A stretch of 64,000 nucleotides of DNA from Patescibacteria group bacterium (lineage in GTDB: Bacteria > Patescibacteriota > Minisyncoccia > Phycocordibacterales > JAKFXT01): contig JBBTUX010000002.1 of assembly GCA_038063555.1 (NCBI GenBank), positions 6,806-70,805 of the forward strand, written 5' to 3'. The notes beneath the pieces are model-generated. The model was given only the letters and a program-made list of their open reading frames with translations. It searched no databases and was not told where the DNA came from. A program made the translations under genes and the position numbers. This document shows, one piece after another, positions 481 through 60,654 of this stretch (the stretch's first letter is position 1; each line of letters opens with the position of its first letter).

Positions 481-507
481 TTGCAAGTACAACTTGTCCC
501 GTATAAT
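481..507 (+). promoter_or_regulatory. Putative sigma70-like promoter for the ArsR-like gene (TTGCAA, then about 15 nt, then TATAAT at 502-507)
   Basis: A perfect TATAAT hexamer sits at 502-507, with TTGCAA 15 nt upstream. The -10 box overlaps the left arm of palindrome P1, which is an operator-like arrangement. Confidence 0.3.
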
Positions 508-543
508 CTATACCACTATTCGCTAGAATAGTGGTATAGATTA
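504..543. repeat. Palindrome P1 of family A: 18-bp arms TAATCTATACCACTATTC / GAATAGTGGTATAGATTA around the loop GCTA
   Basis: I read it directly as an inverted repeat. It shares the core ATCTATAC[C/T]ACTATTC with P2 (853-890) and P3 (4154-4197). Confidence 0.9.
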
Positions 544-566: not shown

Positions 567-833
567 ATGAATTCCAGAAAGACCGAGGTGATTACAAAAG
601 GCTTGGCTAGCCACAGACGGTTGTATATAGTTGAAATGTTATTTAAAAAACCAGAAATGTCTGTTGAAGAAATTGCCAAAGTGGCCAAGATAAGTCACAA
701 AAATGCTTCTGGCCATATTAACAAACTGACTTCTTCTGGTTTGATAATGAAACGGCATGATGGTAATTTTGTTCGTCATAAACTGACAAAACGTGGCGAA
801 ACCATTCTCAAATTCTTGAGAATATTGGAATAG
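567..833 (+). CDS. ArsR/SmtB-like winged-helix HTH transcriptional regulator (88 aa)
   Basis: At 88 aa it has an ...ASHRRLYIVEML... recognition-helix region typical of the ArsR family. It is about 50% identical to the paralog at 60192-60461. Its 3' end encodes FLRILE* over a short palindrome (ATTCTCAA/TTGAGAAT at 804-823). Confidence 0.6.
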   Translation: MNSRKTEVITKGLASHRRLYIVEMLFKKPEMSVEEIAKVAKISHKNASGHINKLTSSGLIMKRHDGNFVRHKLTKRGETILKFLRILE

Positions 834-852
834 TGTAAAAAATAGAAGCGTA

Positions 853-890
853 CATCTATACTACTATTCGCGCGAATAGTAGTATAGATG
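853..890. repeat. Palindrome P2 of family A: a perfect 38-bp palindrome CATCTATACTACTATTCG|CGAATAGTAGTATAGATG
   Basis: I read it directly. It lies between the ArsR-like gene and the DGR target gene. Confidence 0.9.
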
Positions 891-973
891 TTACAGAAAA
901 ATGGTAAGAAAAAAGTAAGAATAAGAAAAAAAAGCTGATGGCAGACCACTGTCTTTTTTGCTAAAGTAAGGTC

Positions 974-2989
974 ATGGAAAAGTTTGAAGGTGATTTTCTT
1001 AAGGATAAATACTGGGGCAATAAAGAATTCCGGGAAGCCGCGGGGGTTTCGGCTCGCCGCACGAAAAAGCGTGAAAGCGAGAATGTGCCCAATACGCCAC
1101 CTGAGCGCATTGAGAACTACCTCGATCGATTTACCGAGATAACCGATCGGGAAGACCCTGAAAAACGCGAGCGCGGCATTTCTGCCATTGAGCGACTCGT
1201 GGAGAAGAAATACATCATCAAGGCAGAAAATATAACCGATGAATATATAAAAAATGTATTGCTCGGCAATGAAGCCGAACTTCTCGGATACGAGCGGGAA
1301 GATGTAAAAGACGAGCAGATACGAAAAACCGTGCTTGATTCGCTGGAGAATAAAATTCATTCGCCTCTCTCTACATATAGAGTGCCGATTGAACTTCGAG
1401 AATCATTGGAGAATATGATTATTACCGACCAGAAAGGGAGGATGAAGCAGTGGCTCGATTACCTTACAGGAGAAGAAGCGCGTCATGCTCCGGTTGCACT
1501 TCGTTATTGGGCATTCGCCGAAATGCTTAAACAGGGAGATTACGATCCTGTTAGCGGAGAATACAACAAACGCACTAACGCAACAGTTGCAATTTTCCCC
1601 GAACTCGACCAACAAGCCCTTGCCCTTGTTTTTGATGAAGTGGAACGACGAAGAACCGGCAAAACATCTGCACTTTCTACGGGCGATGATGCGCGACAGG
1701 CCGAATTGCGAGATCTGCTTCAACATGAGAATTTTGGTAAGCTCTATGCGTTCATGCAGGAGCATGTTCGTTCGCTAAAATTACCGACCGAGCGTCTTGT
1801 CATCACCGAGGGAGGATGGAAACTCTTTTCAAAAGATTCTTCACCATCTGATTTAACCGCTCCGCTCCAAGGGTATCAGACTAAATGGTGCATTGCGGGA
1901 GAAGGCCACGCTACCAGCTATCTGGAAACTGGTGATGTCTGGATTTATTTTTCAAAAGATGTGGACGGACAAAATACTATCCCTCGCGCGTGCGTTATAG
2001 ATAACAAAGAACACGGTATTACCGAAGTCCGAGGCATCATTTTCAATGAAGAAGTTAAACAACATCTTGACGACTACATCACGCCGGTAGTTGACGCAAA
2101 ACTCAAAGATATGGAGGGTGGTGAAAAATGGGCGGACAAAATGGATGATATGAAGAAGTTGCGTGAACTGCACTTCAAATATTTGCAAAAGGAACCATTG
2201 AATAAAAACGATTTAACTTTCTTGTATGAGATTGACCGACCAATACAGGAATCCGGATATGGTAAAGACCCGAGAATAGAAGAGCTGAAAAAAGGCAGAA
2301 ACAGACAAGAGGACATCAAAACAATGTGTGATTGTAAGGAAGAGTTTATTGCCACAGATTTTATTGATATAAAAGAAATCACACAAGTGTTTTGTGAAGA
2401 TACAGGAGATAAAATAACTTTCTTTGATTTTCGGGAAGGACAAAACAAAGAGAAACTTCTGCCGCTTATGGAATTGGCGAAAAGAATAAAAGAAACTGGA
2501 AGGGGAGCACGACCAGACATGTCATTTGAGGGAGGAATAGTAAATATAAATGTGCCAAAAGAAAAACTAAAGGACTTGCCGACGGCCATTAAGTCATTCG
2601 AAGAGGCAGACAATAATTCACCCTCGTCTATTTGGGAAGAATTAAAAAAAATGCCATTTGCTACATTGGAGCAATCTTCTTTGGAACTTATTGTTCTTTC
2701 TTACAATAAAGACGTAGAAACAAGAAAATCATCAGAAAAAATAGTAGAAGATATGGATAAGCTAGGACTTAGACCAGCTACCTTTGGGGAATTAATTACT
2801 CTTGGCATAATTAAGCCCGTTTTTAACAAGAAAAACGAATATATTGTTGCTCTCGGCACAAAAGCTACTCTGGACGGCGGTGTTCGTGTCTCGGTCTTGG
2901 TCTGGTACGGTGATAAGCGTCTTCTGGATGGCGACGGGTGGACGATCGAGTGGGGCGAGCTTAGCCGTTTCCTTTGTCTCCGCAAATAG
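974..2989 (+). CDS. DGR target protein (671 aa) with a C-terminal variable region
   Basis: This long ORF lies immediately upstream of the TR and RT. Its last roughly 40 codons (VR 2868-2985) align without gaps to the TR, with conserved Trp and Gly scaffold codons (LDGGVRVSVLVWYGDKRLLDGDGWTIEWGELSRFLCLRK versus TR-frame LDGDIHVPNLDWNDGERSLNRNIWDNEWDDRNRFVCLRN). The N-terminal half is GC-richer than the C-terminal half. I recognised no other domain. Confidence 0.6.
   Translation: MEKFEGDFLKDKYWGNKEFREAAGVSARRTKKRESENVPNTPPERIENYLDRFTEITDREDPEKRERGISAIERLVEKKYIIKAENITDEYIKNVLLGNEAELLGYEREDVKDEQIRKTVLDSLENKIHSPLSTYRVPIELRESLENMIITDQKGRMKQWLDYLTGEEARHAPVALRYWAFAEMLKQGDYDPVSGEYNKRTNATVAIFPELDQQALALVFDEVERRRTGKTSALSTGDDARQAELRDLLQHENFGKLYAFMQEHVRSLKLPTERLVITEGGWKLFSKDSSPSDLTAPLQGYQTKWCIAGEGHATSYLETGDVWIYFSKDVDGQNTIPRACVIDNKEHGITEVRGIIFNEEVKQHLDDYITPVVDAKLKDMEGGEKWADKMDDMKKLRELHFKYLQKEPLNKNDLTFLYEIDRPIQESGYGKDPRIEELKKGRNRQEDIKTMCDCKEEFIATDFIDIKEITQVFCEDTGDKITFFDFREGQNKEKLLPLMELAKRIKETGRGARPDMSFEGGIVNINVPKEKLKDLPTAIKSFEEADNNSPSSIWEELKKMPFATLEQSSLELIVLSYNKDVETRKSSEKIVEDMDKLGLRPATFGELITLGIIKPVFNKKNEYIVALGTKATLDGGVRVSVLVWYGDKRLLDGDGWTIEWGELSRFLCLRK
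2868..2985 (+). repeat. DGR variable region (VR), 118 bp, at the 3' end of the target gene
   Basis: It aligns without gaps to 3288-3405, with identical 12-nt 5' and 8-nt 3' ends (CTCTGGACGGCG ... CTCCGCAA). TR AAY codons correspond to diversified VR codons (V, Y, D, D, I, S, K). About 42 of 118 positions mismatch, and only about half of those sit at TR adenines. Confidence 0.55.
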
Positions 2990-3287
2990 ATTTTTGAATT
3001 TTTGTCACTTTGCTTATGATTTAGATATTTTGATTTTGTTCTTTTCTTTTTTTAAATTAAAATAATAATGAGAGTAGATAATGAGTGCGCGGATAAATTC
3101 TTCGCAACATCGAAATCAGTAGAACACAGATCGGAATTTTTGCGTGATAAGTGCGTGAAAAGTGTGTCTGTGTTTTCTTTAAAAAAAGAAATCTACTTGG
3201 CGCATATACGTCTGGCATTATGATGCCGACTTAAATACAATGTATGGTTGCGACTATATGTGGTGGATTGCATGTGTATATGCGAAA

Positions 3288-3405
3288 CTCTGGACGGCGA
3301 TATTCATGTCCCGAACTTGGATTGGAATGACGGTGAGCGTAGTTTGAACAGGAACATCTGGGACAATGAGTGGGATGATAGGAATCGATTTGTTTGCCTC
3401 CGCAA
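3288..3405 (+). repeat. DGR template region (TR), 118 bp, adenine/AAY-rich, non-coding
   Basis: In the VR reading frame it carries 7 Asn (AAC/AAT) codons in about 39 codons. It lies 85 nt upstream of the RT. The ORF-track ORF 3248-3463 covers it and is probably not a real protein. Confidence 0.55.
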
Positions 3406-3469
3406 TTTAATTTCTTTCTCCGCCAGATATTTATTTTGGTGGAGTTTTCTTTTGACTCTCTAATTCCAA

Positions 3470-4183
3470 TTGTTTAATCAATTGGTTATGCCAGTAATTA
3501 GCAAAGCAAGTGTTAGAGACAGAGTTGTTCATAGGTTGGTTTATAACGCTCTTTATTATTACTTTGACTATAAATTTATTTATGATTCTTATAGTTGTCG
3601 AATTGGAAAAGGTACACACAAGGCACAGGCGAGATTCAGAAGTTTTGTTAATAAGGTTAGCAAAAATTATACGGCCTCCTGTTTTGTTTTAAAATTTGAT
3701 ATCAAAAAATGTTTTGAGAGTATTGATAAAAATATACTCAAAAATATACTTTCTTTTCATATTGAGGATAAAGGACTAAAAAGAATTATATTTTCTATAA
3801 TTGATAGTTTTGGAACGGGAATTCCTCTCGGGAATTTGACATCACAATTATTCTTGAATATTTATCTCCACGAGCTTGATTGGTATGTAAAACAATTTTG
3901 GGGGTGTAAATATTACCTGCGATATGCTGACGATATAATCATTATCTCCACCAACAAAGAGAAATTAGAAGAACTATATGCAAATTTAGAAATTTTTCTT
4001 AAAAACAAATTGAACCTCACTACTCACAAGAAAATCATTATTAGTATTTACTCGGGAATTGATATTTTGGGGTTGGTGTTTTTCCCGCAGTATCAACGCT
4101 TGCGACGCAGTACCGAAAGAAGAATAGAAAAAAGAAATAGCAAAATATTTAAACATCATCTATACCACTATTCCATGGAATAG
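3470..4183 (+). CDS. DGR-type reverse transcriptase (237 aa; apparently shortened at both the N- and C-terminus)
   Basis: It contains the RT motifs VRDRVVH (motif 1), CRIGKGTHKA (motif 2), FDIKKCFESID, the DGR-diagnostic GIPLGNLTSQLF motif and YADDIII (motif 5). Alignment from memory to Bordetella phage Brt starts at Brt motif 1 (the first roughly 55 aa are missing) and stops about 40 aa short. The last codons lie inside palindrome P3. Confidence 0.8.
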   Translation: MFNQLVMPVISKASVRDRVVHRLVYNALYYYFDYKFIYDSYSCRIGKGTHKAQARFRSFVNKVSKNYTASCFVLKFDIKKCFESIDKNILKNILSFHIEDKGLKRIIFSIIDSFGTGIPLGNLTSQLFLNIYLHELDWYVKQFWGCKYYLRYADDIIIISTNKEKLEELYANLEIFLKNKLNLTTHKKIIISIYSGIDILGLVFFPQYQRLRRSTERRIEKRNSKIFKHHLYHYSME

Positions 4184-4197
4184 TGGTATAGATGATG
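4154..4197. repeat. Palindrome P3 of family A: a perfect 44-bp palindrome CATCATCTATACCACTATTCCA|TGGAATAGTGGTATAGATGATG
   Basis: I read it directly. It overlaps the RT stop codon (TAG at 4181-4183) and shares its core with P1 and P2. It also creates the spurious mirror ORFs ending ...LYHYSME. Confidence 0.9.
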
Positions 4198-4266
4198 TTG
4201 ACGGTAACACTGGCAATGCAATATTGTAGCCTCTCTTAACAAAAGCTTAACAAAGGATATTTTTTT

Positions 4267-27891: not shown

Positions 27892-28503
27892 ATGATCTCT
27901 TTAATCTCTTTATTGAAAAAACTTCCCATAGATGTGGGTCAGGCTGAAATGAAGCACACAAGCGCAGGAAAACGCATCGCATTTTCATTTGTAGAGGATG
28001 GGAATGGGAAAGCAGCTCTTGATATAGGGTGTCGCGATGGTTATTGGTCGGAGAAGCTAAAAGAAAAAGGATATCAAGTAAAATCTTTGGATATTGAACC
28101 CCGCTACGACAATGCCATAACTCACAATGTGGAAACAGGTTTGCCATTTGCTGATAAATCATTTGATCTCGTTTGGTGCACGGAGGTTATAGAACATTTG
28201 CACAAACCATCCTTTTTATTGGAAGAGATTGAAAGAGTTTTAAGACCTGGGGGTAAAGTTATTTTAACTACCCCTAATTCCGGTTGGTGGTTTTATTGGA
28301 TTGTGAGTCTTTGGGGGTGGACTCCACAAAAACTACAAAATTTGGATCATAAACAATTTTTCAAAGAAAAAGATATAAGAAAAATTGCGGGCAAAAATTA
28401 TGATTTATTCGGTTACTTTCCCTATGCTTTCTTTTTCTTTCGCATAAGCTTCCTTATTGGCGCGCTTTCGCCGACTTTTATACTTGTCCGCAGAGTTTGT
28501 TAA
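27892..28503 (+). CDS. Class I SAM-dependent methyltransferase (Methyltransf_11-like)
   Basis: It has LDIGCRDGYW as motif I and ...RVLRPGGKVILTTPN... Confidence 0.6.
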   Translation: MISLISLLKKLPIDVGQAEMKHTSAGKRIAFSFVEDGNGKAALDIGCRDGYWSEKLKEKGYQVKSLDIEPRYDNAITHNVETGLPFADKSFDLVWCTEVIEHLHKPSFLLEEIERVLRPGGKVILTTPNSGWWFYWIVSLWGWTPQKLQNLDHKQFFKEKDIRKIAGKNYDLFGYFPYAFFFFRISFLIGALSPTFILVRRVC

Positions 28504-28664
28504 TCATTCATTTACCACGACACCATCCACATTTGTTTTCGTGACATTTATTGAGTGCGCACGTTTACAATAAAAAAAAGACATGTCGGTAAGCAAACTC
28601 AATTTTAACAAACTAAGGTTATTGAGATTATTGAAGAGTTATTAGTTGATTTATATAAAGGAAA

Positions 28665-28702
28665 ATAAAAAAACCGCTCGGCCTATATTGTGGCAAAGCG
28701 GG
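28665..28702 (-). terminator. Rho-independent terminator for the minus-strand SDR gene
   Basis: The minus strand reads CCCGCTTTGCCACAATATAGGCCGAGCGG followed by TTTTTTTATTTT, which is a GC stem plus T-tract, immediately 3' of the SDR stop. Confidence 0.5.
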
Positions 28703-28704
28703 AA

Positions 28705-29409
28705 TTATCGTGTCTCTAACTCCTCAATTCTCGGTGGGCCACGCAGGATGCGCACGAGTTTGTATTGGAAGTTACTGCGATACAAACTCATTATTTGTTC
28801 TGCTACCCACTTGGGATCAAGGAGAGAGGATAAGTCGTCGCGGGGGTTACTTCTCCAGAACTCGGTGTTCATTCCGGAAGGTCCTACTACCAAGACTTTG
28901 CCAATACGCTCGTCAAGCGAGAGAGAGCTGGCAAGCATGGCGGTTCCCGCTTTGATTCCAGTGTAGACTGGTTCACGGAGACGGGGAATCCACTGCGAGG
29001 TAGAGGTGACAGCGATGAACCCGTTTAGCACCCCCTGCTTTCGCAGAATCCTTTGCATCATCATGGCGGGTGCCAGGAAGCCGACATTGGTCATTTTCTG
29101 GATACTTGAATCCCCGAGTTCGTCGATAGTTCCTTTTTCCTCGAATCCGGCGGCGTAAATAAGCAGGTCAATCGGACCAACTTTGCCGATTAGTGAATCT
29201 AAGTCGACAGAAAGCTCGTCGGCATTAGGGCCTATATAAAAGTTGAAGAATCGAACGTTTTTTTCCTGGGGATCGTTTCTGCCGGTAATGAAAACGGTAT
29301 CGCTTTCTTTGGCGAAAAAACGTGCCAAGGCAAGTCCTAATCCGGATGTTCCGCCGACAATTAATATTTTTTTCATGACAATTCCTCGGTGACTAACTAT
29401 TTCGCACAT
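28705..29409 (-). CDS. Short-chain dehydrogenase/reductase (SDR) family oxidoreductase
   Basis: It has MKKILIVGGTSGLGLALA, a TGxxxGxG Rossmann motif. Its GC content is much higher than the surrounding sequence. Confidence 0.65.
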   Translation of the reverse strand: MCEIVSHRGIVMKKILIVGGTSGLGLALARFFAKESDTVFITGRNDPQEKNVRFFNFYIGPNADELSVDLDSLIGKVGPIDLLIYAAGFEEKGTIDELGDSSIQKMTNVGFLAPAMMMQRILRKQGVLNGFIAVTSTSQWIPRLREPVYTGIKAGTAMLASSLSLDERIGKVLVVGPSGMNTEFWRSNPRDDLSSLLDPKWVAEQIMSLYRSNFQYKLVRILRGPPRIEELETR

Positions 29410-29498
29410 TAATACTAAAATTCTTCTTTGTCAAATTTTGTTTTTCAAAAAAATGTCGGAGAAGCGAGTGCGTCTCCGACATGTTGCTACGGCCAGGA

Positions 29499-30824
29499 TC
29501 ACAGGAAGTAATCCCCCCGATCAGCGACGGCCTCAAGTTCTTCCGGATTGATCCCGCTTTTGATGGCGTCTTCAATCCAGTCGTTGACTGGTTTGTAGAG
29601 GCAGGTTACTTCGCGGCACTCATGCTCTGCGTTGAAATGTCGCAGTATTGAGGTGGTGGCTTCTTGTGTTTTGGCCACGCTTCCGGTATCCGCATAAGCA
29701 TCTTTCCCGGCGATGAAGGCCTTTCCAACTCCGCGATGTGCTGGGCAGTTGTAAAGTCCGCGTGGAGAGAGAACCTGGCGCAAGGCCTGCATGTGGCAGG
29801 TGTTCGGTTGCTTGGTGAAATCTCGCCATGTGTCGCTTTCCAGGAGCCGTAGATTGGTACTCTCCACGATGTTGAATGTGGGGGTTTCCAGTTTTTTGGC
29901 TTCGTTGATTGCAATTCGGATGCGGGCGATTGTGCTCCTGTAATCCTCAATCGCCCCGGTGTCCATCACTTCGCCGCCCTCCGGAGAGCGCCGAAGAAAC
30001 GGCTTGGCGGAAAAATAGCTGAACCCCGAATCATGCGCCAATTTTGCCGCAGGAACTATCTCATCGATATTCGGCACAACTGACACCTTCTCTGCGCTTT
30101 CGGCTCCACGCCAGGTGACAATAAAGGAAAAACCGATTTGAAGCCCCGGGTTTTTTTCGCGAATACCCGGTACTCCGGCACAAATTTCCTCCAATGACAC
30201 ATTTTGCTTCGGTTGATGCATGGCTTGAAAGGTTTGGTCATACGCGGAGTCAAGCGAAAGGCGCACCCAGTCACCGGGAGTGAACAAATGTGCCACCTCG
30301 CGGATTTTCTCGTTGCGGGAACCGTTGCTGACGACCGCCACTTGAATGTTGCGCTCTTTTAGGAAGCGAACGGTGTCTCCAAATCGAGGGTAAAGAGTCG
30401 GTTCGCCCCCCCCGATTAGAATTACCGAACGCAGCCCCCGCTCAATCAGTTGCGAAAGAGAAGACAGCAGTTTTTCGTGGGCATACTTGACCGGACTGTT
30501 CAGAATGTCCCAGTCGATGCAATGTCCACACGCGTAATTGCAGGCGGTGGTCATGTCCAAGTTCATGGAAAGCGGTCCGAAGTCCACGGGCATTTCCGGC
30601 GGAGCGTTGCCTTTCAAGAGGGCATGGTTCACCGCTCTTTGCCACTTCACATACGAAATGACCCTGGGCAGAACCGACTCCTGCCGCAATTTGGCGGTGA
30701 AATCATGACGCTGGTCGAGCTTGGGGCTCGGTGGCACCGTTTTCCCCGAGTTTGAAGCAATCTCCAAGTTTGGCTGTAAACCGCGCCTGGATTTAATCTT
30801 TATTACTTGTCTGGTCAGGTTCAC
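29499..30824 (-). CDS. Radical SAM domain protein of unknown specificity, with extra C-terminal Cys residues
   Basis: It has CNYACGHC, a CxxxCxxC motif, at about aa 95 and a glycine-rich SAM motif ILIGGGEP. The C-terminus carries additional Cys (CHMQ, CPAHRG, CREVTC). It lies in a GC-rich island. Confidence 0.65.
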   Translation of the reverse strand: MNLTRQVIKIKSRRGLQPNLEIASNSGKTVPPSPKLDQRHDFTAKLRQESVLPRVISYVKWQRAVNHALLKGNAPPEMPVDFGPLSMNLDMTTACNYACGHCIDWDILNSPVKYAHEKLLSSLSQLIERGLRSVILIGGGEPTLYPRFGDTVRFLKERNIQVAVVSNGSRNEKIREVAHLFTPGDWVRLSLDSAYDQTFQAMHQPKQNVSLEEICAGVPGIREKNPGLQIGFSFIVTWRGAESAEKVSVVPNIDEIVPAAKLAHDSGFSYFSAKPFLRRSPEGGEVMDTGAIEDYRSTIARIRIAINEAKKLETPTFNIVESTNLRLLESDTWRDFTKQPNTCHMQALRQVLSPRGLYNCPAHRGVGKAFIAGKDAYADTGSVAKTQEATTSILRHFNAEHECREVTCLYKPVNDWIEDAIKSGINPEELEAVADRGDYFL

Positions 30825-31193
30825 GATGCTCTCCTAAAGTTTCATTAGTTCGGAAGGATTTAAAAGATCGGTCTAGTATGAAACTAGTCTTGTCCAACGT
30901 TAACACTTTTCTAGACACATTCCAATGTTTACATTTTTGTGGGGTAAAAGTGTCAAAGTGTTTAATTTTTTAAAAATTAGCAATTTGTCGCTTCTTCGAA
31001 CGTTTGCGCCAAGGAGCTTCAGAGAGAAGTGTGTGGGATGAAATAAAGATGCGGGTTGGCAAGTGGCGACCTGAATGGTTCTCACGGCGCAAGTAAGGGA
31101 TTTTTGCAATACAGGCGCGAAGGGGTCGAGAGGAACCACACGCGTTTTTTTTTCATGTTATACTGACGCACCAAACCATAACCAGAGGCGCCC

Positions 31194-32147
31194 ATGAGAA
31201 TGTCAATTATATTGCCTGTTTATAACGAAGCGGGTAGCATAGAGGAGCTTTACCTTCAAATTAAGAATGAGCTTGCTTTAGTGTCTTTTAAATATGAAAT
31301 TGTTGCTGTAAACGACGGCTCTACTGATAAGAGTTTAGAAATACTTGAGAAAATCGCCAAGGACGACCATAATTTCCGAGTACTCAATTTAAGCAAAAAC
31401 TATGGCCAAACAGCGGCGCTTTCCGCGGGACTTGACTTTGCTTCGGGCGAAGTAATTATACCGATGGATTCGGATTTACAGAATGATCCGGCGGATATCC
31501 CAAAATTCTTGGAGCTCATAGATGAGGGGTATGACGTAGTTTCCGGCTGGAGAAAGGACAGAAAAGACAATTTTCTTCGCCGCTTGCCATCCCAGATAGC
31601 CAACAAGCTCATTTCCTACATCACAAATGTGAAACTTCATGATTATGGCTGTACCATGAAGGCCTACAGTAAAGAAATAATAAAGGATGTGCGCTTCTAC
31701 GGAGAGATGCATCGCTTTATGCCGGTTTATGTTGCCTGGCACGGCGCGCGAATAAAAGAGCTCGTCGTAAATCATCGGGCGAGAATTCACGATAAGTCAA
31801 AGTACGGAATTGGCAGGACTTTCCGCGTAATTCTGGATCTTCTCACGGTTAAATTTCTGATGACTTATTTGGGAAGGCCGATGCACTTTTTCGGCTGGGC
31901 GGGACTTTTCTCTCTTTTTTTAAGTTTTATATCAGGAGGCGGGGCTATTTTTTTGAGAATATTTGAAGATATTCATTTTACTAGAACGCCCCTTCCGTTG
32001 TTGACAGTTTTTTTAGCTATCATGGGTGTCCAGTTTATCTTAATGGGATTATTGGCCGAAATTTTGATCAGAATTTATCACGAGCCACGTGGCAAGAATA
32101 CCTATACACTAAGAAGTAAAATAAACTTTGAGCATGAGTCAGTTTAA
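31194..32147 (+). CDS. GT2-family polyprenyl-phosphate glycosyltransferase (DPM1/ArnC/GtrB-like) with C-terminal TM helices
   Basis: It has ILPVYNEAGSIEEL, VNDGSTDKS and the DSD motif (PMDSDLQNDP). Two C-terminal TM helices are present. Confidence 0.75.
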   Translation: MRMSIILPVYNEAGSIEELYLQIKNELALVSFKYEIVAVNDGSTDKSLEILEKIAKDDHNFRVLNLSKNYGQTAALSAGLDFASGEVIIPMDSDLQNDPADIPKFLELIDEGYDVVSGWRKDRKDNFLRRLPSQIANKLISYITNVKLHDYGCTMKAYSKEIIKDVRFYGEMHRFMPVYVAWHGARIKELVVNHRARIHDKSKYGIGRTFRVILDLLTVKFLMTYLGRPMHFFGWAGLFSLFLSFISGGGAIFLRIFEDIHFTRTPLPLLTVFLAIMGVQFILMGLLAEILIRIYHEPRGKNTYTLRSKINFEHESV

Positions 32148-42822: not shown

Positions 42823-44081
42823 AGATTGTATTTCTACAAGATGATTTTCCACCACAAAGTTTTGGTGGAGCAGGGATTTCTACTTTTGAACTTGCACTCG
42901 GTATGAAGAATGCTGGTCATGATATTTTTGTTATTACCACCTGCAGGAAACAAGGCGATGCGGGTGAAAGTGATTATCAGGGTTTAAAGATTTTCAAAAT
43001 ATTAAGCAACTACCATCCGAGGTGGCGCGCGTATCTGAGTATTTATAACAGGCCTGTAATCAAAGAAGTGGAGAAAATACTGGAGAAAATAAAGCCAGAT
43101 ATTGTACATGCCAATAATATTCACTTCTATCTTTCATATTGCACATTGCAAGTGGCAAAGAAATACTCCAAAGCAGTGGTAATAACCCTAAGAGATGCCA
43201 TGTCTATTTGTTATGGGAAGTTAGAGACGAAACAGTATTTGGAGAATTTTAATTGTCGCACTACCTGGCGCGATCATATAAGCCAAGCGAGAAAGAGATG
43301 GAATCCTTTTCGCAACTTTTTTATTAAAAGATATCTTAAGTATGCAAGTAAAATATTTGCAATTAGCAAGTCGTTACAAAATGCTCTTTTCCAAAACGGT
43401 ATCAAAAATGTTGATGTTATATACAACGGAATTAATGTTCGCGAATGGAATGTTGAAGCAAATGCTGTTACACAATTTCAATCTAAATATGATTTGCATG
43501 CAAAAAAAGTTCTTCTCTTTAGCGGACGGCTCGGTGCATCAAAGGGCGGAGCGAAAGCTCTCGAAGCGCTAGTCATAATAGTTAGAGAGATACCTGACGT
43601 GGTGCTTTTGGTTGCTGGAAGTGTTGACGAGTACGCGCGTGTGATGAAAGAGTACGCAAGGAGGTTGAATGTAGAAAAAAACCTGATTTTTACGGGTTGG
43701 ATTGAAAGAGAGGAAATCAAAGTTGCTTATGCCGTTTCTGATATTGTGCTGATGCCATCCGTTTATCTTGACGCTTTTGGTAGAGTGAATATTGAAGCGA
43801 TGGCTTCGAGGAAACCGGTGGTCGGCACTTGCTACGGAGGAACTCCCGAAATTGTTGTTGATGGAGTTACAGGTTACATCGTGAATCCATGTTATCCAGA
43901 GAGAATAGCTGAAAAAATAATTGAGTTACTCAAAAATCCTAAAATGGCGGAGGAATTTGGTGATGCTGGATACGAAAGAGTAAAGACCCATTTCAACCTT
44001 GAAAGGAGTGTTGAGCAGCATCTTTCCCAATATGATATGTTACTTAATACGAGCCGTGTTAGTAGTAGACAAAAGACATAA
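42810..44081 (+). CDS. GT4-family glycosyltransferase
   Basis: It has a GT-B fold with ...PSVYLDAFGRVNIEAMASRKPVVGTCYGGTPEIV... Confidence 0.7.
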   Translation: MYGMKIVFLQDDFPPQSFGGAGISTFELALGMKNAGHDIFVITTCRKQGDAGESDYQGLKIFKILSNYHPRWRAYLSIYNRPVIKEVEKILEKIKPDIVHANNIHFYLSYCTLQVAKKYSKAVVITLRDAMSICYGKLETKQYLENFNCRTTWRDHISQARKRWNPFRNFFIKRYLKYASKIFAISKSLQNALFQNGIKNVDVIYNGINVREWNVEANAVTQFQSKYDLHAKKVLLFSGRLGASKGGAKALEALVIIVREIPDVVLLVAGSVDEYARVMKEYARRLNVEKNLIFTGWIEREEIKVAYAVSDIVLMPSVYLDAFGRVNIEAMASRKPVVGTCYGGTPEIVVDGVTGYIVNPCYPERIAEKIIELLKNPKMAEEFGDAGYERVKTHFNLERSVEQHLSQYDMLLNTSRVSSRQKT

Positions 44082-44093
44082 ATCTGGAAAAAT

Positions 44094-44915
44094 ATGCCAA
44101 AAAATAAACTTTTTTCTCGCGAGCACAGAAATGAAAATAAACTGGTGAAGGTTGGGAAAGTGGTAATTGGTGGACCGGAGTTTATTGTTATGGCTGGACC
44201 ATGTGCGGTTGAGAATCTAAAGCAAATACAGAAAATTGCCTTTAGCGTTAAAAGCTCCGGCGCCGAAGTTTTGCGAGGCGGGGCTTGGAAGCCAAGATCT
44301 TCCCCTTATAGTTTCCAAGGTTTGGAAACTGAAGGTCTAGAATATTTAAAAAAAGCAGCAGAAGAAAACAACCTCTTAATAGTAAGTGAGATAATGGATC
44401 ACCGTGATATTCCGCTTTTCTTGGAAAATGTGGACATTTTGCAAGTTGGAGCCAGAAATATGCACAATTTCACTCTTCTCAAAGAGCTAGGTAAAATTAA
44501 TAAACCAATCTTGTTAAAACGTGGCATGAGCGCGACTATAGATGAATTTTTACATGCGGCAGAATATATTCTCTCTGGAGGAAACGAAAACGTTATTCTT
44601 TGTGAACGTGGCATTCGTACTTTTGAAACGGCAACCAGGAATACTTTAGATATTTCGGCTATACCAATTGTTAAAAAACTTTCCCATTTACCAATAATAG
44701 TTGATCCAAGTCATGCTGCCGGGAAGAACAAAGAAATCATTCCCGCTCTGTGTAGGGCGGCTTTAGCCGCGGGTGCCGATGGTCTTTTGCTTGAAGTCCA
44801 TCATGACGCCGATAATGCGCTTTGCGATGGAGATCAGGCGCTTTCCGAAAAAGAATTTGCCGATCTTATGATTGATCTTAAAAAAGTTGCTCCAGTTTTT
44901 GGTAGAAAAATATGA
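44094..44915 (+). CDS. Class I-beta 3-deoxy-ulosonate-phosphate synthase (DAHP synthase / KDO8P synthase family); its motifs sit closer to DAHP synthase
   Basis: It has GPCAVEN, RGGAWKPRSSPYSFQGLETEGL, LQVGARNMHNF and GADGLLLEVHHDADNALCDGDQAL. Canonical KdsA has KANRSS and QIPAFLxRQTDL instead, while the motifs here match type I-beta DAHPS from memory. Confidence 0.6.
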   Translation: MPKNKLFSREHRNENKLVKVGKVVIGGPEFIVMAGPCAVENLKQIQKIAFSVKSSGAEVLRGGAWKPRSSPYSFQGLETEGLEYLKKAAEENNLLIVSEIMDHRDIPLFLENVDILQVGARNMHNFTLLKELGKINKPILLKRGMSATIDEFLHAAEYILSGGNENVILCERGIRTFETATRNTLDISAIPIVKKLSHLPIIVDPSHAAGKNKEIIPALCRAALAAGADGLLLEVHHDADNALCDGDQALSEKEFADLMIDLKKVAPVFGRKI

Positions 44916-44976
44916 CGCATATTAACAAATAAAAAAACGCACAGGCCGGTTTTTGGCCCATGCGGTCGTGTGGAAC

Positions 44977-45624
44977 TCAGCCCAGGGTTCTGTGTCGAGC
45001 AATAATGGGTTTCCATAGCCCTTTGACGTCAAGTAGCATCTGCAGGACTTCCCGCACAACGCCATAGCCACCTTTTGCTTTGGTGACATAGTCCACTTCG
45101 GCTCTTGCCTCCGGTGCTGCGTCTTGCGGAGCAGCAGAGAATCCCGCACGGCGAATGAGGGAAATATCCTGAATATCGTTCCCGATAAACAAGACTTCAT
45201 CCCACCCGATGTCAAACTCTTTCAGCAGTGCTTCAACTGCGGCGACCTTATCTTCGACGCCCTGTAGGCACCGAGCACCAAGATCTTCAGCTCGTTGTCG
45301 CACTGTTGGAGACTTGCGCCCGCTGATGAGAACAACAGGTATATCGTGTCTCAGGCATTCCTTGATAACAATGCCGTCGCCAGTAAAGAAGAAGTACCCC
45401 TCAATTCGGCCGTCGGCACCAGATGATAGTTGAAGGAACCTCTCGCTCGGCACGCCGTCGCCATTGCATGGGACGAGCTTTTGAGTAATCCCGGCTGTTT
45501 CAATGTTAAGTCCATCCGATGTTTTGGAAATATAAAACCTGTCATCGGTGTGGACGCCGTCTACGTCCGTTACCGCCATGCGCACTTTTTGAAGTGCGAC
45601 ATTATTGCTATTTCCATGCATCAT
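44977..45624 (-). CDS. kdsC: HAD-family 3-deoxy-ulosonate-8-phosphate phosphatase
   Basis: It has the HAD motif I VTDVDGV and a motif IV-like FIGNDIQD. It is GC-rich. Confidence 0.6.
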   Translation of the reverse strand: MMHGNSNNVALQKVRMAVTDVDGVHTDDRFYISKTSDGLNIETAGITQKLVPCNGDGVPSERFLQLSSGADGRIEGYFFFTGDGIVIKECLRHDIPVVLISGRKSPTVRQRAEDLGARCLQGVEDKVAAVEALLKEFDIGWDEVLFIGNDIQDISLIRRAGFSAAPQDAAPEARAEVDYVTKAKGGYGVVREVLQMLLDVKGLWKPIIARHRTLG

Positions 45625-46390
45625 GATCTCCTTTTTGTTGTCGTGCGACCATGATGGTGCGCACCTGTTCTAGTTCGTCAGGCATGTTCACGCCCAAATT
45701 TTTCCAATCGCCCTTAACGACACGTATACGGACGCCGTTTTCAAGAATTCGCATTTGCTCCACCCCCTCACGTAATTCAAGAGGAGTCCGGGACATTTGC
45801 AGAAATTCGTACAAAAATTCACGTCTAACTACCATAACTCCGATTACATGATAAAGGTCAACTGGAGAGTTGGTGCTATGCGCAAAGGGGACTGGGGCTC
45901 TAGAAAATGACAATACATTATTTTTTAAATCTGTCAAAACCTTGACGACACTTGGAGAGCGCCACATTTCTTCATCATGGATTTTGTCTGCAGCAATGGA
46001 CACCTGGAGCTCGGGGTCTTCCTGAAGTAGAGCCACACATTGATCTATTGCTTCGGCTGGGTAGAGAGGTTCGTCTCCCCAAATGATTGCAATAACATCA
46101 GGAGTGAATTCGGTAAATAATTTAGTCGCGGCGCCGGCGCGATCGCTTCCTGTGGGTAGCTCGCTTGGTGTCATGATGACCGGTACTCCTAAAGGTTTCA
46201 CTATATTTGCAATACGTTCGGAGTCAGTTGCAACCACCAGCGCATCCAAAAGATGCGCTTTCTTTGTACGATCTATTGTGTGTTGTATAAGGGGCTTGCC
46301 AGATATATCGGCGAGCATTTTTTCTGGGATTCGGGTAGAGCCTAGGCGGGCGGGGATTATCCCAAGAACTTTAAGGCGGGGGTTTTGCAT
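45608..46390 (-). CDS. kdsB: 3-deoxy-manno-octulosonate cytidylyltransferase (CMP-Kdo synthetase family)
   Basis: It has LGIIPARLGSTRIPEK and ...WGDEPL... It aligns with E. coli KdsB along its length, from memory. It is GC-rich. Confidence 0.65.
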   Translation of the reverse strand: MQNPRLKVLGIIPARLGSTRIPEKMLADISGKPLIQHTIDRTKKAHLLDALVVATDSERIANIVKPLGVPVIMTPSELPTGSDRAGAATKLFTEFTPDVIAIIWGDEPLYPAEAIDQCVALLQEDPELQVSIAADKIHDEEMWRSPSVVKVLTDLKNNVLSFSRAPVPFAHSTNSPVDLYHVIGVMVVRREFLYEFLQMSRTPLELREGVEQMRILENGVRIRVVKGDWKNLGVNMPDELEQVRTIMVARQQKGDHDAWK

Positions 46391-46492
46391 ATGTATGGAT
46401 ACTTGGAAATTGTATAGAAAGTTTCGTTGAACAGCAATGTTTATTATACATTCGTATGTGGTTCTATAAATAAATTTTTAAATAAATCAAAT

Positions 46493-46528
46493 AAAAAATG
46501 CATACACTCCGCGAGGAAAATGTATGCA
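46493..46528 (-). terminator. Rho-independent terminator downstream of the minus-strand glycosyltransferase gene
   Basis: The minus strand reads TGCATACATTTTCCTCGCGGAGTGTATGCA, a 9-bp stem, followed by TTTTTTATTT. Confidence 0.5.
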
Positions 46529-46559
46529 CGTGATGCTGTACTTAACTTAGTGATGCAGG

Positions 46560-47732
46560 TCAACTTCTTGGCTTGGAAGCGACTTCTTCCAGATAATCGC
46601 AGACCCGGCCGAGGGATTTCTGTGGAGGAATAAAGCGACTTTCAAGCTCTCGTCCCCACTCATCGTCCAATGTTCGAGAGAGCTCCGCAATGGCTTCCTC
46701 CCCGTCGCGTGCGCAAAGAGAACGCCCATCGGCTACGTCTCCCCAATAGGGCCATTTCTGGAGAAGTTCTTTTTCGAAATACTTCCGCCCCCGCCCGCCG
46801 AAATTCCGAATCACCACGTTTCCGAGGAGAACGGCTTTGAGACCTTCCACTGAAAGGCTTCCGGCAAAGACTGCGTCCGCCGCGATGTTTAGAACTTCAG
46901 AGGACGGCGCCCCATGGACTTTGCTCAAAACACGCAACGTCCGTGGTGCCCACTTTCGAATCCTCCCCATTTCGTTCTTGCAAAAATCGGGGTTATCGAA
47001 ACTTGTGTTGAGAGCTGGGTGAAGTCTGGGAATAAAAACGAGGGGGTGTATTTCCGAAACCTCTGTAACCGCTTTCAGAACCATCTCGCAATCTTCGGCG
47101 TAGAGGTCTCGAATGCCGTGGGACCACCAGAGCACAATCTTTTCCTCTTCTGATATCCCATTGTCTTTCCGGAATGTCAGCCGTATTTCCTCCCGTTGCG
47201 GGAGAAGCTCAAGAAGGCCGTCGAAGAGAGGTTGGCCGACGACTTTCACAGCGCGCGAATCCATGGAAGGATGCATTTTGCGAATGGCATCTGCATGTCC
47301 TTCGTTAATTGCACACCAGTTTCCATACCCCACTTCGCGCCACATCGGAAAGGCGTGATTGAAGTAATTGTCGGCCGGGAAGAACAGAGGGATCTTCATT
47401 GTGGAAACGACATCGGCAACTTCTCGGCAGAGATTTGGATTGGCTTGCACATCGAGACCAACCGAAATCGCGTCGAACTTGGAGTATGAGTAGAAATCCG
47501 ATGCCGAACGCGCCAAGAAAGGATTTCCGACACCTCCCTTGGCGAAGATGTTTGTTGCTTGCCCTCTGGAATCGGCCAGAAGTTGCACATTATGCCCCCG
47601 ACGAATCATTTCTCTTGCCAACGCCAAGTGGACGTTAGCGCTTCCTCCATCGGCGGAAACGAACAAGAATTTTTTCATTTGATGAACCAACCCCTTCTTT
47701 GGTTGTTGGAAAATCTGATGGCATTTAATCAT
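46560..47732 (-). CDS. Putative GT-B glycosyltransferase, possibly a capsule KpsS-like or Kdo transferase
   Basis: It is 390 aa, GC-rich and adjacent to kdsB. I verified no definitive motif; the functional guess rests on context and size only. Confidence 0.25.
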   Translation of the reverse strand: MIKCHQIFQQPKKGLVHQMKKFLFVSADGGSANVHLALAREMIRRGHNVQLLADSRGQATNIFAKGGVGNPFLARSASDFYSYSKFDAISVGLDVQANPNLCREVADVVSTMKIPLFFPADNYFNHAFPMWREVGYGNWCAINEGHADAIRKMHPSMDSRAVKVVGQPLFDGLLELLPQREEIRLTFRKDNGISEEEKIVLWWSHGIRDLYAEDCEMVLKAVTEVSEIHPLVFIPRLHPALNTSFDNPDFCKNEMGRIRKWAPRTLRVLSKVHGAPSSEVLNIAADAVFAGSLSVEGLKAVLLGNVVIRNFGGRGRKYFEKELLQKWPYWGDVADGRSLCARDGEEAIAELSRTLDDEWGRELESRFIPPQKSLGRVCDYLEEVASKPRS

Positions 47733-47762
47733 AATTCATAGAAAAGTCAAATTTTTCTCTCT

Positions 47763-49568
47763 GTGACATTGACCTCTCCTCGTTTGTTGGTAATCTTACT
47801 ATACATGAAAGAGAAGAAAGTTTTAGTGGTTTTTGGAGAACAACTTCCACCGAAATGGTTGCAATTAAGACATCAATATGACGTCGTAATTACTAGCGAA
47901 AAATTACGACAAAATGTAGAGAAACTCGGCTTTAAATGGACGGATATTGATGGATTAATTGAACCAGGAAGTATTTATGAGGCAAGCACCTTTGCCGAGG
48001 AACTTTCTCACTTGAAATTTTCTGACGGGTCTCGGATTGCCAAGTCATTTCTTTATAAAGGATACGAATTATGGTGGACACATTATGACATGTTGTTTTT
48101 ATACTTTTGTTTACCATATACGAGGTATAGGAAATTACTTGAATATGTAAGAAGTTTTCAGGGTGTTTATTTTTATCGTCCTCCGAATAAAAGTTTGTTT
48201 TCTTGCTATCTAGAAGCATACGGCAGCAAAATGATTGTACTTCAAGAGCCAAGACTCAAAAGCCCATCCTTTCTTCCTTTTGGTGTCTTTCTACAAATTG
48301 TAATTACTCTTTTGTGTTTGCCGATTCTTATATTAAGAAGGTATCATTCCATGATATTTATTGGCGATAAATTTGAAAAAGATAAAGATTATGATTCTAG
48401 GGTGAAGTTTATATATGAAGAGTTGAGACAAAAGAAAATTCCTTTCGTTGAGTTCATTCGCGGTTTGGAATCTTGGAAAACCGTATTAGAGCATGCGTTT
48501 ACAAGAAAGCGTCCAGTCGTTTATTCTGAAGCGGTAGCTTTTGTCGGTCGTTTTATAAGTATTCTCACAGGCGGACATTCTATAGCTAGAAAAAGATTTG
48601 GCTCTCACATTTTTTCTTCTGAAACAGATAGGGAAGCGCGATTTAAATTTTTTGTGGCAACCCAATATCTTTTAGGCGCATACGATGATATTTGGGCGAT
48701 ACGGATTATGAAATGGATTTTGCGTGTGATAGGTGTTAGGGCGGCATTTATTTCGGCGGCTTGTGAACGTAATTTTCACACTGTATTGGGTTGTAAATTA
48801 AATGTCATACCAATAGTTGGTATTTTGCACGGATTCGCTTCAAAGAATTACAATGTATATGATTTTATGCCGGGGTTTGATGGAGAAAAAAGTTTATCCG
48901 TTGATAAGTATGGTCTTTGGAGCGAGTGGTGGAGAGGATATTATATAAAAAATAGTAAAACCTATCGTCCGGAACAGCTTTTTGTTTCTGGTCCAATGAG
49001 ACCCTTGCAAAAACCATTAATTGATTCTGTTTTGAAAACACTTGTTAAACGACAAAAGATAAATGTTCTTTTGGTTTCTGAAATAGTCGCTGTCCCCTCG
49101 GAAGTCATGCCGTATCTGGATGCTCTTTTTGAAGATTCTAATTTTTCTGTTTATATAAAATTTCGTCAAAATAAAGACGCTTTTGAAGAATGGCTAAAGA
49201 TTAATCGTCCTGATGTTTTAGCCAAGCTTGGTAAAGACAGAACTTTGAAAGGGACGATGAATGAAGCTATTGAACTGTGCGATGTTGTAGTCGGTTCCCA
49301 GAGCACTGGAGTTATAGAGGCGACACTTCACGGCAAACCCTTTGTTTTTTTCAACACCAAGAAGTGGGGCGACTATTTTGATTTAAAATCACTTGATTCA
49401 AAATATAATTTCTTTGCAGAAAATCCTAAAGAGTTAGTTAATTACATAAGAGAGAGCGAAAAAATTCCCAAAGAAGTGTTAAAAGATTTTTGTGAAAGAT
49501 TTTTCGGAGACCCACGTAAAAATGGTAGCAAATGGGCTGTCGAAGAATTGGAAAAATTTTCCAAATAG
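47763..49568 (+). CDS. Putative GT-B polymer-forming transferase (TagF/CDP-glycerol glycerophosphotransferase-like or capsule-synthesis family)
   Basis: Its C-terminal ...CDVVVGSQSTGVIEATLHGKPFVFF... resembles GT-B donor-binding segments. The assignment is low-confidence. Confidence 0.25.
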   Translation: MTLTSPRLLVILLYMKEKKVLVVFGEQLPPKWLQLRHQYDVVITSEKLRQNVEKLGFKWTDIDGLIEPGSIYEASTFAEELSHLKFSDGSRIAKSFLYKGYELWWTHYDMLFLYFCLPYTRYRKLLEYVRSFQGVYFYRPPNKSLFSCYLEAYGSKMIVLQEPRLKSPSFLPFGVFLQIVITLLCLPILILRRYHSMIFIGDKFEKDKDYDSRVKFIYEELRQKKIPFVEFIRGLESWKTVLEHAFTRKRPVVYSEAVAFVGRFISILTGGHSIARKRFGSHIFSSETDREARFKFFVATQYLLGAYDDIWAIRIMKWILRVIGVRAAFISAACERNFHTVLGCKLNVIPIVGILHGFASKNYNVYDFMPGFDGEKSLSVDKYGLWSEWWRGYYIKNSKTYRPEQLFVSGPMRPLQKPLIDSVLKTLVKRQKINVLLVSEIVAVPSEVMPYLDALFEDSNFSVYIKFRQNKDAFEEWLKINRPDVLAKLGKDRTLKGTMNEAIELCDVVVGSQSTGVIEATLHGKPFVFFNTKKWGDYFDLKSLDSKYNFFAENPKELVNYIRESEKIPKEVLKDFCERFFGDPRKNGSKWAVEELEKFSK

Positions 49569-59511: not shown

Positions 59512-60128
59512 AAAGAATAAATGGAAAAGTTGCCGATAAAGTTGTTGAACTTGGTAAATTGGTTTTACAATTTGCAAGAGTAAATAGAATCACTCTTTAT
59601 GAGGATGGTGTTACACCAGAATCTGACACAGACCATACCGTAATGCTTTCACTTATTGCTTGTGCTGTCGCATCAGAATATAAAAAAGATTTAGATTTGG
59701 GATTAGTTGCTCAATTTGCCCTAGTTCATGATTTTGTAGAGGTTTACACGGGAGACATTCCTAATATTCATGGAAAAATGATTGATAAAAGACACTTGAA
59801 GAAAAAGGAACTTGAACAAAAAGCCTTAAAAAGATTAGAAAAAAACTTCAAAAAAGTTTTACCTTGGCTTTCAAAGACCATAAAAAAGTATGAAAAAATG
59901 GATACTAAAGAAGCCCGTTTTGTTAAGATTTTAGATAAAGCGATGCCTAAAATAACACATTCGCTTAATAAAATGAAAGCTTTAAAAATACGTGGTTTTG
60001 ACAAGAAAATGGCAGAAGATACTTTAAGAGACCAAATAATATCCATAGAAAAAAGTTATGGAAAAGACCAAAAAGAAGCGATAGACATAATGAAATTATT
60101 AGCAAAAAAATCTTTATCCGCTTTTTAA
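59508..60128 (+). CDS. HD-domain phosphohydrolase (YfbR-like 5'-deoxynucleotidase family)
   Basis: It has ...SDTDHTVMLSLIA... and ...LVHDFVEVYTGDIP..., which are the HD motifs. Its 4-nt overlap with the upstream gene makes an ATGA junction. Confidence 0.55.
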   Translation: MKRINGKVADKVVELGKLVLQFARVNRITLYEDGVTPESDTDHTVMLSLIACAVASEYKKDLDLGLVAQFALVHDFVEVYTGDIPNIHGKMIDKRHLKKKELEQKALKRLEKNFKKVLPWLSKTIKKYEKMDTKEARFVKILDKAMPKITHSLNKMKALKIRGFDKKMAEDTLRDQIISIEKSYGKDQKEAIDIMKLLAKKSLSAF

Positions 60129-60173
60129 ATTCTCTATTCCAATGTTCTCAAGAACATTGGAATAGAGAATTTT
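60127..60173. repeat. Palindrome P4 of family B: 22-bp arms AAATTCTCTATTCCAATGTTCT / AGAACATTGGAATAGAGAATTT with a 2-nt spacer
   Basis: I read it directly. It overlaps the HD-gene stop and lies 19 nt upstream of the second ArsR-like gene. Confidence 0.9.
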
Positions 60174-60191: not shown

Positions 60192-60461
60192 ATGAAAAAC
60201 TTTAGGAAACTGGAAAGGGTAGTGAAAGGATTTTCCAATCACCGAAGAATTGAAATTTTAGAATTGTTAAAAAGAAAACCGGAACTTTCCGTCGTTGAAA
60301 TTGCTGAAGAGTTGAAAATCAATTTCAAAACAGCTTCCGAGCACATAAGAAGATTGGCCATTGCTGGACTTGTAATCAAACGCTCCGAAGGTCCTGCTGT
60401 CCGTCACAAACTCACCCCCACCGGAATCTCTATTCTAATGTTCTTAAGAACATTAGAATAG
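60192..60461 (+). CDS. ArsR/SmtB-like winged-helix HTH transcriptional regulator, a paralog of 567-833
   Basis: At 89 aa it carries ...SNHRRIEILELL... It is about 50% identical to the first copy. Its 3' end encodes FLRTLE* inside palindrome P5. Confidence 0.6.
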   Translation: MKNFRKLERVVKGFSNHRRIEILELLKRKPELSVVEIAEELKINFKTASEHIRRLAIAGLVIKRSEGPAVRHKLTPTGISILMFLRTLE

Positions 60462-60465
60462 AGAT
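60426..60465. repeat. Palindrome P5 of family B: a perfect 40-bp palindrome ATCTCTATTCTAATGTTCTT|AAGAACATTAGAATAGAGAT
   Basis: I read it directly. It covers the last 11 codons and the stop of the ArsR-like gene and shares its core with P4. Confidence 0.9.
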
Positions 60466-60654
60466 TTAGGAAAATAAATAATAATACTTATAAATACTTG
60501 CACGATAAACAAGAGATATGAGAAACTAGACGGAACCTGTCCCGTTAGAAGTCGCGGACACCAAAACATAATTTTATTAAATCAGTTATATCAATTATCA
60601 AAAATCATTGTAGTAAATGCGGAGTATTAATTTCCGTGTCCTACTTCTAATGGG

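Follow-up and report, generated by a model that had tools for sequence, protein, structure and literature searches.

A degraded diversity-generating retroelement in a Patescibacteria genome, in which the variable region and template region also differ outside adenines

A stretch of 64,000 nt from the genome of a Patescibacteria group bacterium (GenBank assembly GCA_038063555.1, contig JBBTUX010000002.1; hereafter referred to as the window) carries a cassette that was originally predicted to be a diversity-generating retroelement (DGR), consisting of a target gene ending in a variable region (VR), a template region (TR) and an open reading frame (ORF) for a reverse transcriptase (RT). All coordinates refer to this window, and searches in the window covered its 64 kb, on both strands for the scan of TR matches. 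The cassette is a degraded member of a known DGR type, as it has neither a complete RT nor the accessory protein Avd, nor VR/TR differences that are confined to adenines. The following features were found:

974..2989, + strand: target gene, 671 aa (MEK7567304.1, Patescibacteria group bacterium)
2867..2985, + strand: VR, comprising the last 39 target codons plus AA (2868-2985 in the alignment with the TR)
3068..3287, + strand: structured RNA domain of ~215 nt with six helices, immediately 5′ of the TR
3287..3405, + strand: TR, with seven AAY codons and 30 adenines in 3288-3405
3418..3453, + strand: stem-loop and U tract, 13 nt after the TR; relatives have it with different stem sequences
3434..3493, – strand: avd remnant, last ~20 codons (GWHNQ...; tblastn E = 2.5e-6 to aa 55-74 of the Avd of the related cassette L011)
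3493..3494: deletion junction, at which avd codon ~55 (–) meets RT codon 76 (+)
3488..4183 (ORF 3470/3488-4183), + strand: truncated RT ORF, 231 aa from the ATG at 3488, identical to P0001

Alignment of the VR with the TR was gap-free over 118 nt at an offset of 420 nt and yielded 76/118 identities, with identical termini at both the 5′ end (ACTCTGGACGGCG) and the 3′ end (CTCCGCAA). Because no other gap-free match to the TR in the 64 kb exceeded 53/118, this repeat stands far above chance. The 42 mismatches were distributed over 19 of the 30 TR adenines and 23 of the 88 other positions (Fisher p = 4e-4). Adenine mismatches fell nearly always on codon positions 1-2 (18/19), and the non-adenine mismatches often on position 3 (14/23). 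All three TGG codons were kept between VR and TR, six of the seven TR AAY codons lay opposite changed VR codons (the seventh, AAT, being opposite AAA), and three mismatches paired a G in the TR with an A in the VR. At the 3′ boundary of the repeat, the VR read ...CGCAAATAG and the TR ...CGCAATTTA, and the relatives switched at the same point; this may be a boundary like that of the initiation of mutagenic homing elements (IMH/IMH*), which gives directionality. The original prediction had described a gap-free 118-bp pair with identical termini, conserved Trp scaffold codons, seven TR AAY codons facing diversified VR codons, about half of some 42 differences at TR adenines and some sites with the A in the VR instead of the TR, all of which was borne out by this alignment. 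Modelling of the target C-terminus, which had been proposed alongside, yielded a predicted C-type lectin fold for the last ~105 aa, so that the VR would lie at the C-terminal end of a C-type-lectin-fold target.

A further VR that matches the TR except at adenines, as had also been expected, did not emerge from the scan of the 64 kb, in which the best non-self match at the TR non-adenine positions was 40/88 and thus at chance level.

Related cassettes provided a reference for the expected architecture. In five gene-called cassettes (L001, L008 from Nomurabacteria UBA11704, L009/L010, L011/L012 and the P0212 contig) the order was target (+), VR, TR, avd (–) matching PF22296, and RT (+) of 276-315 aa, with a VR-to-TR offset of ~420-480 nt. 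Another relative, L014, displayed the same target-VR-TR-RT order with an RT of 326 aa; avd was not called there, and no dedicated check was made. L014 and L020 contribute VR/TR pairs, and avd was seen in 5/7 RT-bearing relatives, L014 and L020 not having been assessed for it. The RT homologs are 58-74% identical. DGR clade 2 has been reported to be restricted to Patescibacteria, and some DGRs have been classed as 'inactive' (Roux et al. 2021, PMC8144416); we infer that the cassette belongs to these DGRs of Patescibacteria or candidate phyla radiation (CPR) bacteria.

As controls, the own VR/TR mismatches of seven related cassettes were counted as adenine/non-adenine, which gave 16/1 for L001, 14/1 for L008, 17/0 for L009, 17/1 for L011, 19/1 for L014, 17/0 for L020 and 13/0 for L016. 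The latter (L016 1729-2808; UBA11704, DOZK01000020.1) is an RT-less satellite that consists of a 214-aa target, VR, RNA domain and TR, adjoins nusG/rplK and resides on the same contig as the complete DGR L008; because it has no RT and its mismatches are nevertheless adenine-only, it would be served in trans by the RT and Avd of L008. With 19/23, the window was the sole outlier, the eight related cassettes having 0-1 non-adenine mismatches, so its VR and TR differ well beyond the TR adenines. When VRs and TRs were compared crosswise, cognate pairs of intact cassettes had 0-1 non-adenine mismatches and foreign pairs 16-40. The window VR had 23 such mismatches with its own TR and 22 with the TR of L009, which stems from a different organism, and foreign VRs had 20-36 with the window TR. 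Likewise, VR and TR of the window differed at 15/39 third codon positions, versus 0-2/39 in the own pairs of intact cassettes, and this value lies inside the range of 10-22 third-position differences found between TRs of different organisms. The divergence was two-sided, the family state having been kept by the VR at some sites and by the TR at others. For example, family TRs read GGC GAC AAG and the window VR reads GGT GAT AAG like them, and it is the local TR that deviates (GAC GGT GAG).

These comparisons indicate that the VR and TR of the window are not product and donor of one another, being as different as parts taken from different organisms. The original prediction had regarded the pattern as the hallmark of adenine-directed retrohoming. 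The adenine bias is indeed real (p = 4e-4), but is no proof that the local TR wrote the VR. Because every VR of the group is diversified at codons where every TR of the group has AAY, any group VR compared with any group TR shows such a bias, which is therefore best understood as a legacy at the family level.

The RT ORF matched Pfam RVT_1 (E = 9e-18) and retained motifs 1-7, including GIPLGNLTSQ and RYADD, plus a short C-terminus; it thus displays the RVT_1 match and the LGxxxSQ and YxDD signatures of the DGR lineage of RTs. No stop codon was found in it, and across 215 shared columns only three that were invariant in 11 other RTs were changed in the window, with two of these three located at the junction. 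On the N-terminal side, however, the alignment began only at homolog residue 76, corresponding to residue ~75 of bRT (the RT of the Bordetella phage BPP-1 DGR), and the homologs are 276-330 aa long versus 231 aa here; the N-terminal extension (NTE) and fingertips of a complete RT were thus missing. Only the last ~20 codons of avd were left, and the 64 kb contained no other avd and no other RT. Relative to L008 and L011, ~0.56-0.61 kb was missing at the junction. Because the avd end (3493) directly abuts the start of the RT alignment (3494), a single deletion of ~0.56-0.61 kb took the first 54 codons of avd, the first 75 of the RT gene and the intergenic region between the two genes. Truncation of the RT C-terminus by a palindrome overlapping its stop codon (palindrome 3, see below) was also considered, and was ruled out because close homologs end at the same point with a short thumb end.

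Alignment to bRT (PDB 8ub7, E = 9e-35) assigned the lost part of the RT to bRT residues 1-74. According to the cryo-electron microscopy (cryo-EM) study of the bRT-Avd-RNA complex, the bRT NTE has extensive contacts with Avd and reaches the template through K29, the fingertips interact via F66 and R74 with the template base and with the deoxynucleoside triphosphate (dNTP) coming in, and Avd is needed for catalysis (bioRxiv 10.1101/2023.10.23.563531). Because Avd and the equivalents of the bRT NTE and fingertips are gone, we infer that the 231-aa RT is inactive and that the cassette would be unable to retrohome by itself.

In contrast to the protein components, the RNA elements flanking the TR were conserved. 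The domain 5′ of the TR comprises 62 consensus pairs, 38 of which have compensatory changes among 10 sequences, and the window keeps 61/62 of them. The same domain was found in relatives (L001 8100-8318, L008 5118-5340, L009 5222-5503 and L011 5181-5404, and also in L014, L016, L018 and L020), with GAGAGTAGATAATG, CATCGAAATCAGT, AAAAAGAAAT..ACTTGG, CTTAAAT and GTTGCGACT as invariant blocks; as a motif it took the form GAGTAGATAATG-N18-32-CATCGAAATCAGT. It had no Rfam match, and the 64 kb contained no second copy of it. The stem-loop 3′ of the TR was found in all relatives checked and is intact in the window; it resembles a terminator, or may be the equivalent of the Avd-binding stem-loop reported downstream of TRs (10.1101/2023.10.23.563531). 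Moreover, the RNA domain contains an invariant AAAGAAAT with complementarity to AUUUCUUU, a conserved element directly downstream of the TR, and their pairing may correspond to the upstream-downstream duplex reported in other DGR RNAs (bioRxiv 10.1101/2023.10.23.563531). Since the RT has no stops and only three private changes and the RNA keeps 61/62 pairs, the deletion is recent relative to the VR/TR divergence.

The exact 231-aa RT was also present on independently assembled contigs, which were compared at the level of their consensus sequences. One of these (L003) was 100% identical to the window, and four others (L002, L004, L005 and L006, from four runs of another study) had one common second haplotype. 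This haplotype 2 did not differ from the window in the TR and RT (3273-4181) or in 2990-3134, and had one difference in 2300-2840. Its VR, on the other hand, differed from that of the window at 35/118 sites (15 at TR adenines and 20 elsewhere), including 13/39 third positions, with two extra differences just upstream, at 2841 and 2852. Further differences were concentrated in 1500-2300 (86 differences, affecting 51 codons synonymously and 23 non-synonymously) and in 3135-3272 (28 substitutions and a 14-nt indel). Compared with the local TR, the haplotype 2 VR had 17 adenine and 19 non-adenine mismatches. Because the downstream flank in the same samples (3.9-7 kb) was 99.91-99.99% identical to the window, the two haplotypes sit in what is practically one strain background and diverge only locally. 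The VR was identical in the four haplotype 2 samples, as it was in the window and L003. One hidden TR′ as the source of both VR haplotypes was considered and discarded, as it would need an A at ~13 third positions (GAA, AAA, TGA), unlike any TR of the group.

The 1500-2300 patch, rich in synonymous changes, has the pattern of an imported allele. In the RNA domain, 13 pairs were changed in haplotype 2; nine of these were still paired, two double compensatory changes among them. Four pairs were broken, and in three of them the 5′ strand comes from the unchanged segment and the 3′ strand from the divergent patch. Such a pattern is the signature of a chimera of two functional, divergent RNAs.

We consider it probable (roughly 0.6) that a DGR of the Patescibacteria type has been reduced here to a remnant that is not autonomous, and that its VR/TR mismatch stems from mosaic recombination instead of slow drift in place. 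In intact relatives, an RNA composed of the ~215-nt 5′ domain, the TR and the 3′ stem-loop would be reverse-transcribed by RT and Avd with errors opposite adenines, and the resulting cDNA would overwrite the last 39 codons (the VR) of the C-type-lectin-fold target. In the window, the ~0.6-kb deletion joined RT codon 76 to what is left of the antisense avd, its 3′ end, after which the VR would no longer be written by its own cassette. Divergent cassettes would have exchanged target, VR and RNA segments by homologous recombination, leading to mosaic alleles and to discordance between VR and TR. The DGR remnant is thus dead or at best dependent, and does not represent a new mutagenesis mechanism.

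Several points weigh against this explanation. The loss of RT activity is predicted from homology to bRT. The limits of the VR patch match those of the VR itself almost perfectly: its outermost differences are at 2874 and 2980, the only others close by are those at 2841 and 2852, the 154 nt that follow are free of differences, and the 540 nt that precede contain a single one. A VR-sized patch of this kind is expected from a TR-templated process, and an ordinary recombination tract would have such limits only by chance. In addition, both haplotypes mismatch the shared TR, so that at least two exchanges, or an older one, must be assumed. Finally, no donor cassette was found, the pattern fitting the TR and both VRs having 0 matches in genome_contigs and metagenome_contigs, collections that do not contain the window genome and that make this search uninformative beyond the window.

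The limits of the VR patch would be accounted for if the VR were still rewritten by heterologous TRs, from other DGRs in the cell or from incoming elements, via the shared ends ACTCTGGACGGCG ... CTCCGCAA: the left and right edges of the haplotype patch are no more than 7 nt and 5 nt away from those of the VR, the 154 nt downstream are identical, and group TRs have length, frame and end motifs in common. If true, such heterologous retrohoming would explain the 35/118 VR differences between genomes that are 99.9% identical. One TR would not suffice, however, since the VRs differ at 13 third positions and no group TR has an A at third positions, and two distinct donor TRs would be required within the time of 0.1% divergence. 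Furthermore, the patches at 1500-2300 and 3135-3272 and the differences at 2841/2852 lie outside TR homology and require recombination anyway, and the pattern scan of genome_contigs and metagenome_contigs produced no donor TR. We therefore regard this explanation as improbable. In the other reading of the original prediction, use in trans, for which the odds appear slightly better although it remains unlikely, the RNA-TR module is still employed by the RT and Avd of another DGR on a different VR elsewhere in the genome, the adjacent VR being a former or unrelated target. The RNA with 61/62 pairs, the seven AAY codons of the TR and the 3′ stem-loop are all intact, and the UBA11704 satellite (13 adenine and 0 non-adenine mismatches) suggests that service in trans occurs in the group. 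Yet the recent deletion explains the intact RNA and TR equally well, and the 64 kb contained no second VR (best 40/88), RT, avd, target paralog or second RNA element.

That the cassette is a decaying DGR whose target has drifted was one of the two readings of the original prediction, of which the decay stands, the machinery having been broken by the deletion, and the drift is disfavoured. Drift in place would imply that point mutations accumulated after inactivation until about a quarter of the non-adenine sites differed. The broken machinery would allow this, and it would be in line with the 14/23 non-adenine mismatches at third positions, with transitions making up 12/16 of the non-adenine changes private to one VR haplotype, and with both the VR and TR sides having changed relative to the family state. 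Background mutation is nevertheless insufficient to explain why 35/118 VR sites (13/39 third positions) differ between haplotypes of which 7 kb of flank is 99.9% identical, and ~0.36 changes per third position should have brought stops into the RT and eroded the helices, as opposed to an RT without stops and 61/62 pairs. In-place drift is accordingly doubtful, to much the same degree as rewriting by heterologous TRs. Hardly credible, finally, is that the truncated RT has stayed active with Avd gone, and that a loosened base specificity lets it write the non-adenine VR changes itself. Its ORF is intact and contains all catalytic motifs, but it is devoid of the equivalents of the bRT NTE, K29, F66 and R74, a terminator-like hairpin lies between the TR and this ORF, and the deletion took away the native promoter region. 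Moreover, the VR was invariant across the four haplotype 2 samples and across the window and L003, and the third-position enrichment of the non-adenine changes points to selection-filtered divergence and not to fresh mutagenesis.

If the cassette is indeed a mosaic, non-autonomous remnant, the locus offers a clean view of how a DGR begins to be lost from a reduced CPR genome, with a mapped junction and with the target, TR and RNA intact. A non-adenine VR/TR mismatch then need not signify slow decay, and the variable target end that differs sharply between near-identical genomes would suggest that DGR targets are diversified in a second way, by recombination or, with lower likelihood, by cross-homing. 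The locus is also an actual case, of use to DGR surveys, in which motif-based detection would label a cassette a DGR even though it would be unable to function alone.

Regarding the target gene, its protein had no Pfam match, the N-terminal ~470 aa included. These ~470 aa are a member of a widespread family. The 64 kb contained no target paralog, which ruled out paralogs within this stretch as gene-conversion donors. A search with the C-terminal domain returned 3 matches only, none of which was a close VR allele, and the 90% cluster of the target had an N-terminal fragment as its sole further content. No orthologous locus with an intact cassette was obtained via the closest N-terminal homolog (P0121), which sits in a different context without a DGR.

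The ~470-aa N-terminal domain was found joined to at least two unrelated C-terminal modules (P0121-P0124 and P0186 versus the window, P0125, P0201 and P0212), and both module types terminate in an RF(V/L)x(V/L)RK-like tail. This arrangement suggests modular exchange of DGR-diversified heads. Within this domain, alleles ~10% apart are mixed in genomes that are otherwise 99.9% identical, and P0242, a third allele fragment, has a different mosaic of N-terminal-domain states; recombination seems to be concentrated in the target gene irrespective of the DGR. Related targets also occur elsewhere: P0121 (L026) has no DGR nearby, and in L013 (600-960; JGI 3300048016 Ga0456299_027329) the VR of a related target is broken by a frameshift or stop, with glmS directly 3′ and no TR, avd or RT. 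L013 is a further, more advanced DGR loss in the same DGR group.

The cassette is flanked by the murC 3′ end and an ArsR-type winged helix-turn-helix (wHTH) gene on one side and by rsmI on the other side. The original prediction delimited the cassette at 853-4197, but both of these ends turned out to be perfect palindromes and not DGR parts:

504..543: palindrome 1, perfect (TAATCTATACCACTATTC-N4-GAATAGTGGTATAGATTA), 5′ of the wHTH gene
567..833, + strand: gene for an ArsR/MarR-type winged-helix regulator, 88 aa (MEK7567303.1), between palindromes 1 and 2
852..891: palindrome 2, perfect, at the left end of the predicted cassette and of the independently assembled contigs
4152..4199: palindrome 3, perfect, 48 nt, overlapping the RT stop codon, at the right end of the predicted cassette

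The wHTH gene at 567..833 is context and lies outside the DGR proper. A second wHTH paralogue (89 aa vs 88 aa) is located at 60192-60461, with palindromes at 60127-60172 and 60425-60466. Each of these two ArsR-type wHTH genes (567-833 and 60192-60461) is flanked by perfect palindromes of 36-48 nt in a gene-specific variant (TCTATACCACTATTC vs TCTATTCCAATGTTC), and a third copy of the first variant (4152-4199) terminates the DGR cassette. All Logan contigs break at palindromes. The wHTH genes and their palindromes have the look of regulators paired with their operators, or perhaps of a small mobile module. At gathering score, no Rfam family matched the cassette region or any part of the 64 kb; sub-threshold matches were microRNA (miRNA) models on the palindromes only, from which no family could be assigned. 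The G+C content was 0.45-0.47 in 28001-32000 and 44001-48000, versus ~0.35 elsewhere in the window.

Among known systems, the intact CPR DGRs of UBA11704 (GCA_003518045.1, L008), GCA_021734745.1 (L009) and GCA_043760235.1 (L011) resemble the window cassette in their RT (70-74% identity across the 215 aa that the window RT retains), target family, 39-codon C-terminal VR, RNA 5′ of the TR, post-TR stem-loop and gene order. Unlike them, the window lacks avd (20 codons left) and RT residues 1-75, and has 23 non-adenine mismatches versus 0-1. With the Bordetella phage BPP-1 DGR (PDB 8ub7), the group has in common an RT homologous to bRT (P0002, E = 9e-35, residues 6-280) and, in the relatives, VR/TR differences specific to adenines, Avd as a partner and a target with a C-type lectin fold. 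It differs from BPP-1 in that avd is antisense and downstream of the TR, in that a large RNA lies 5′ of the TR, whereas BPP-1 has the spacer (Sp) 3′ of the TR, and in the shorter thumb/C-terminus of its RT. The window copy additionally lacks the NTE and Avd, both of which are needed for bRT catalysis. Treponema denticola TvpA and other C-type lectin-fold DGR proteins are more distant, with an identity of ~10% or less to the target, which moreover carries a ~470-aa N-terminal domain without Pfam match. Compared, lastly, with the degraded DGR targets L013 (no TR or RT) and L026 (no DGR nearby), the window retains the target ORF, the TR, the RNA domain and an open, though truncated, RT, and is an early-stage remnant with one defined deletion.

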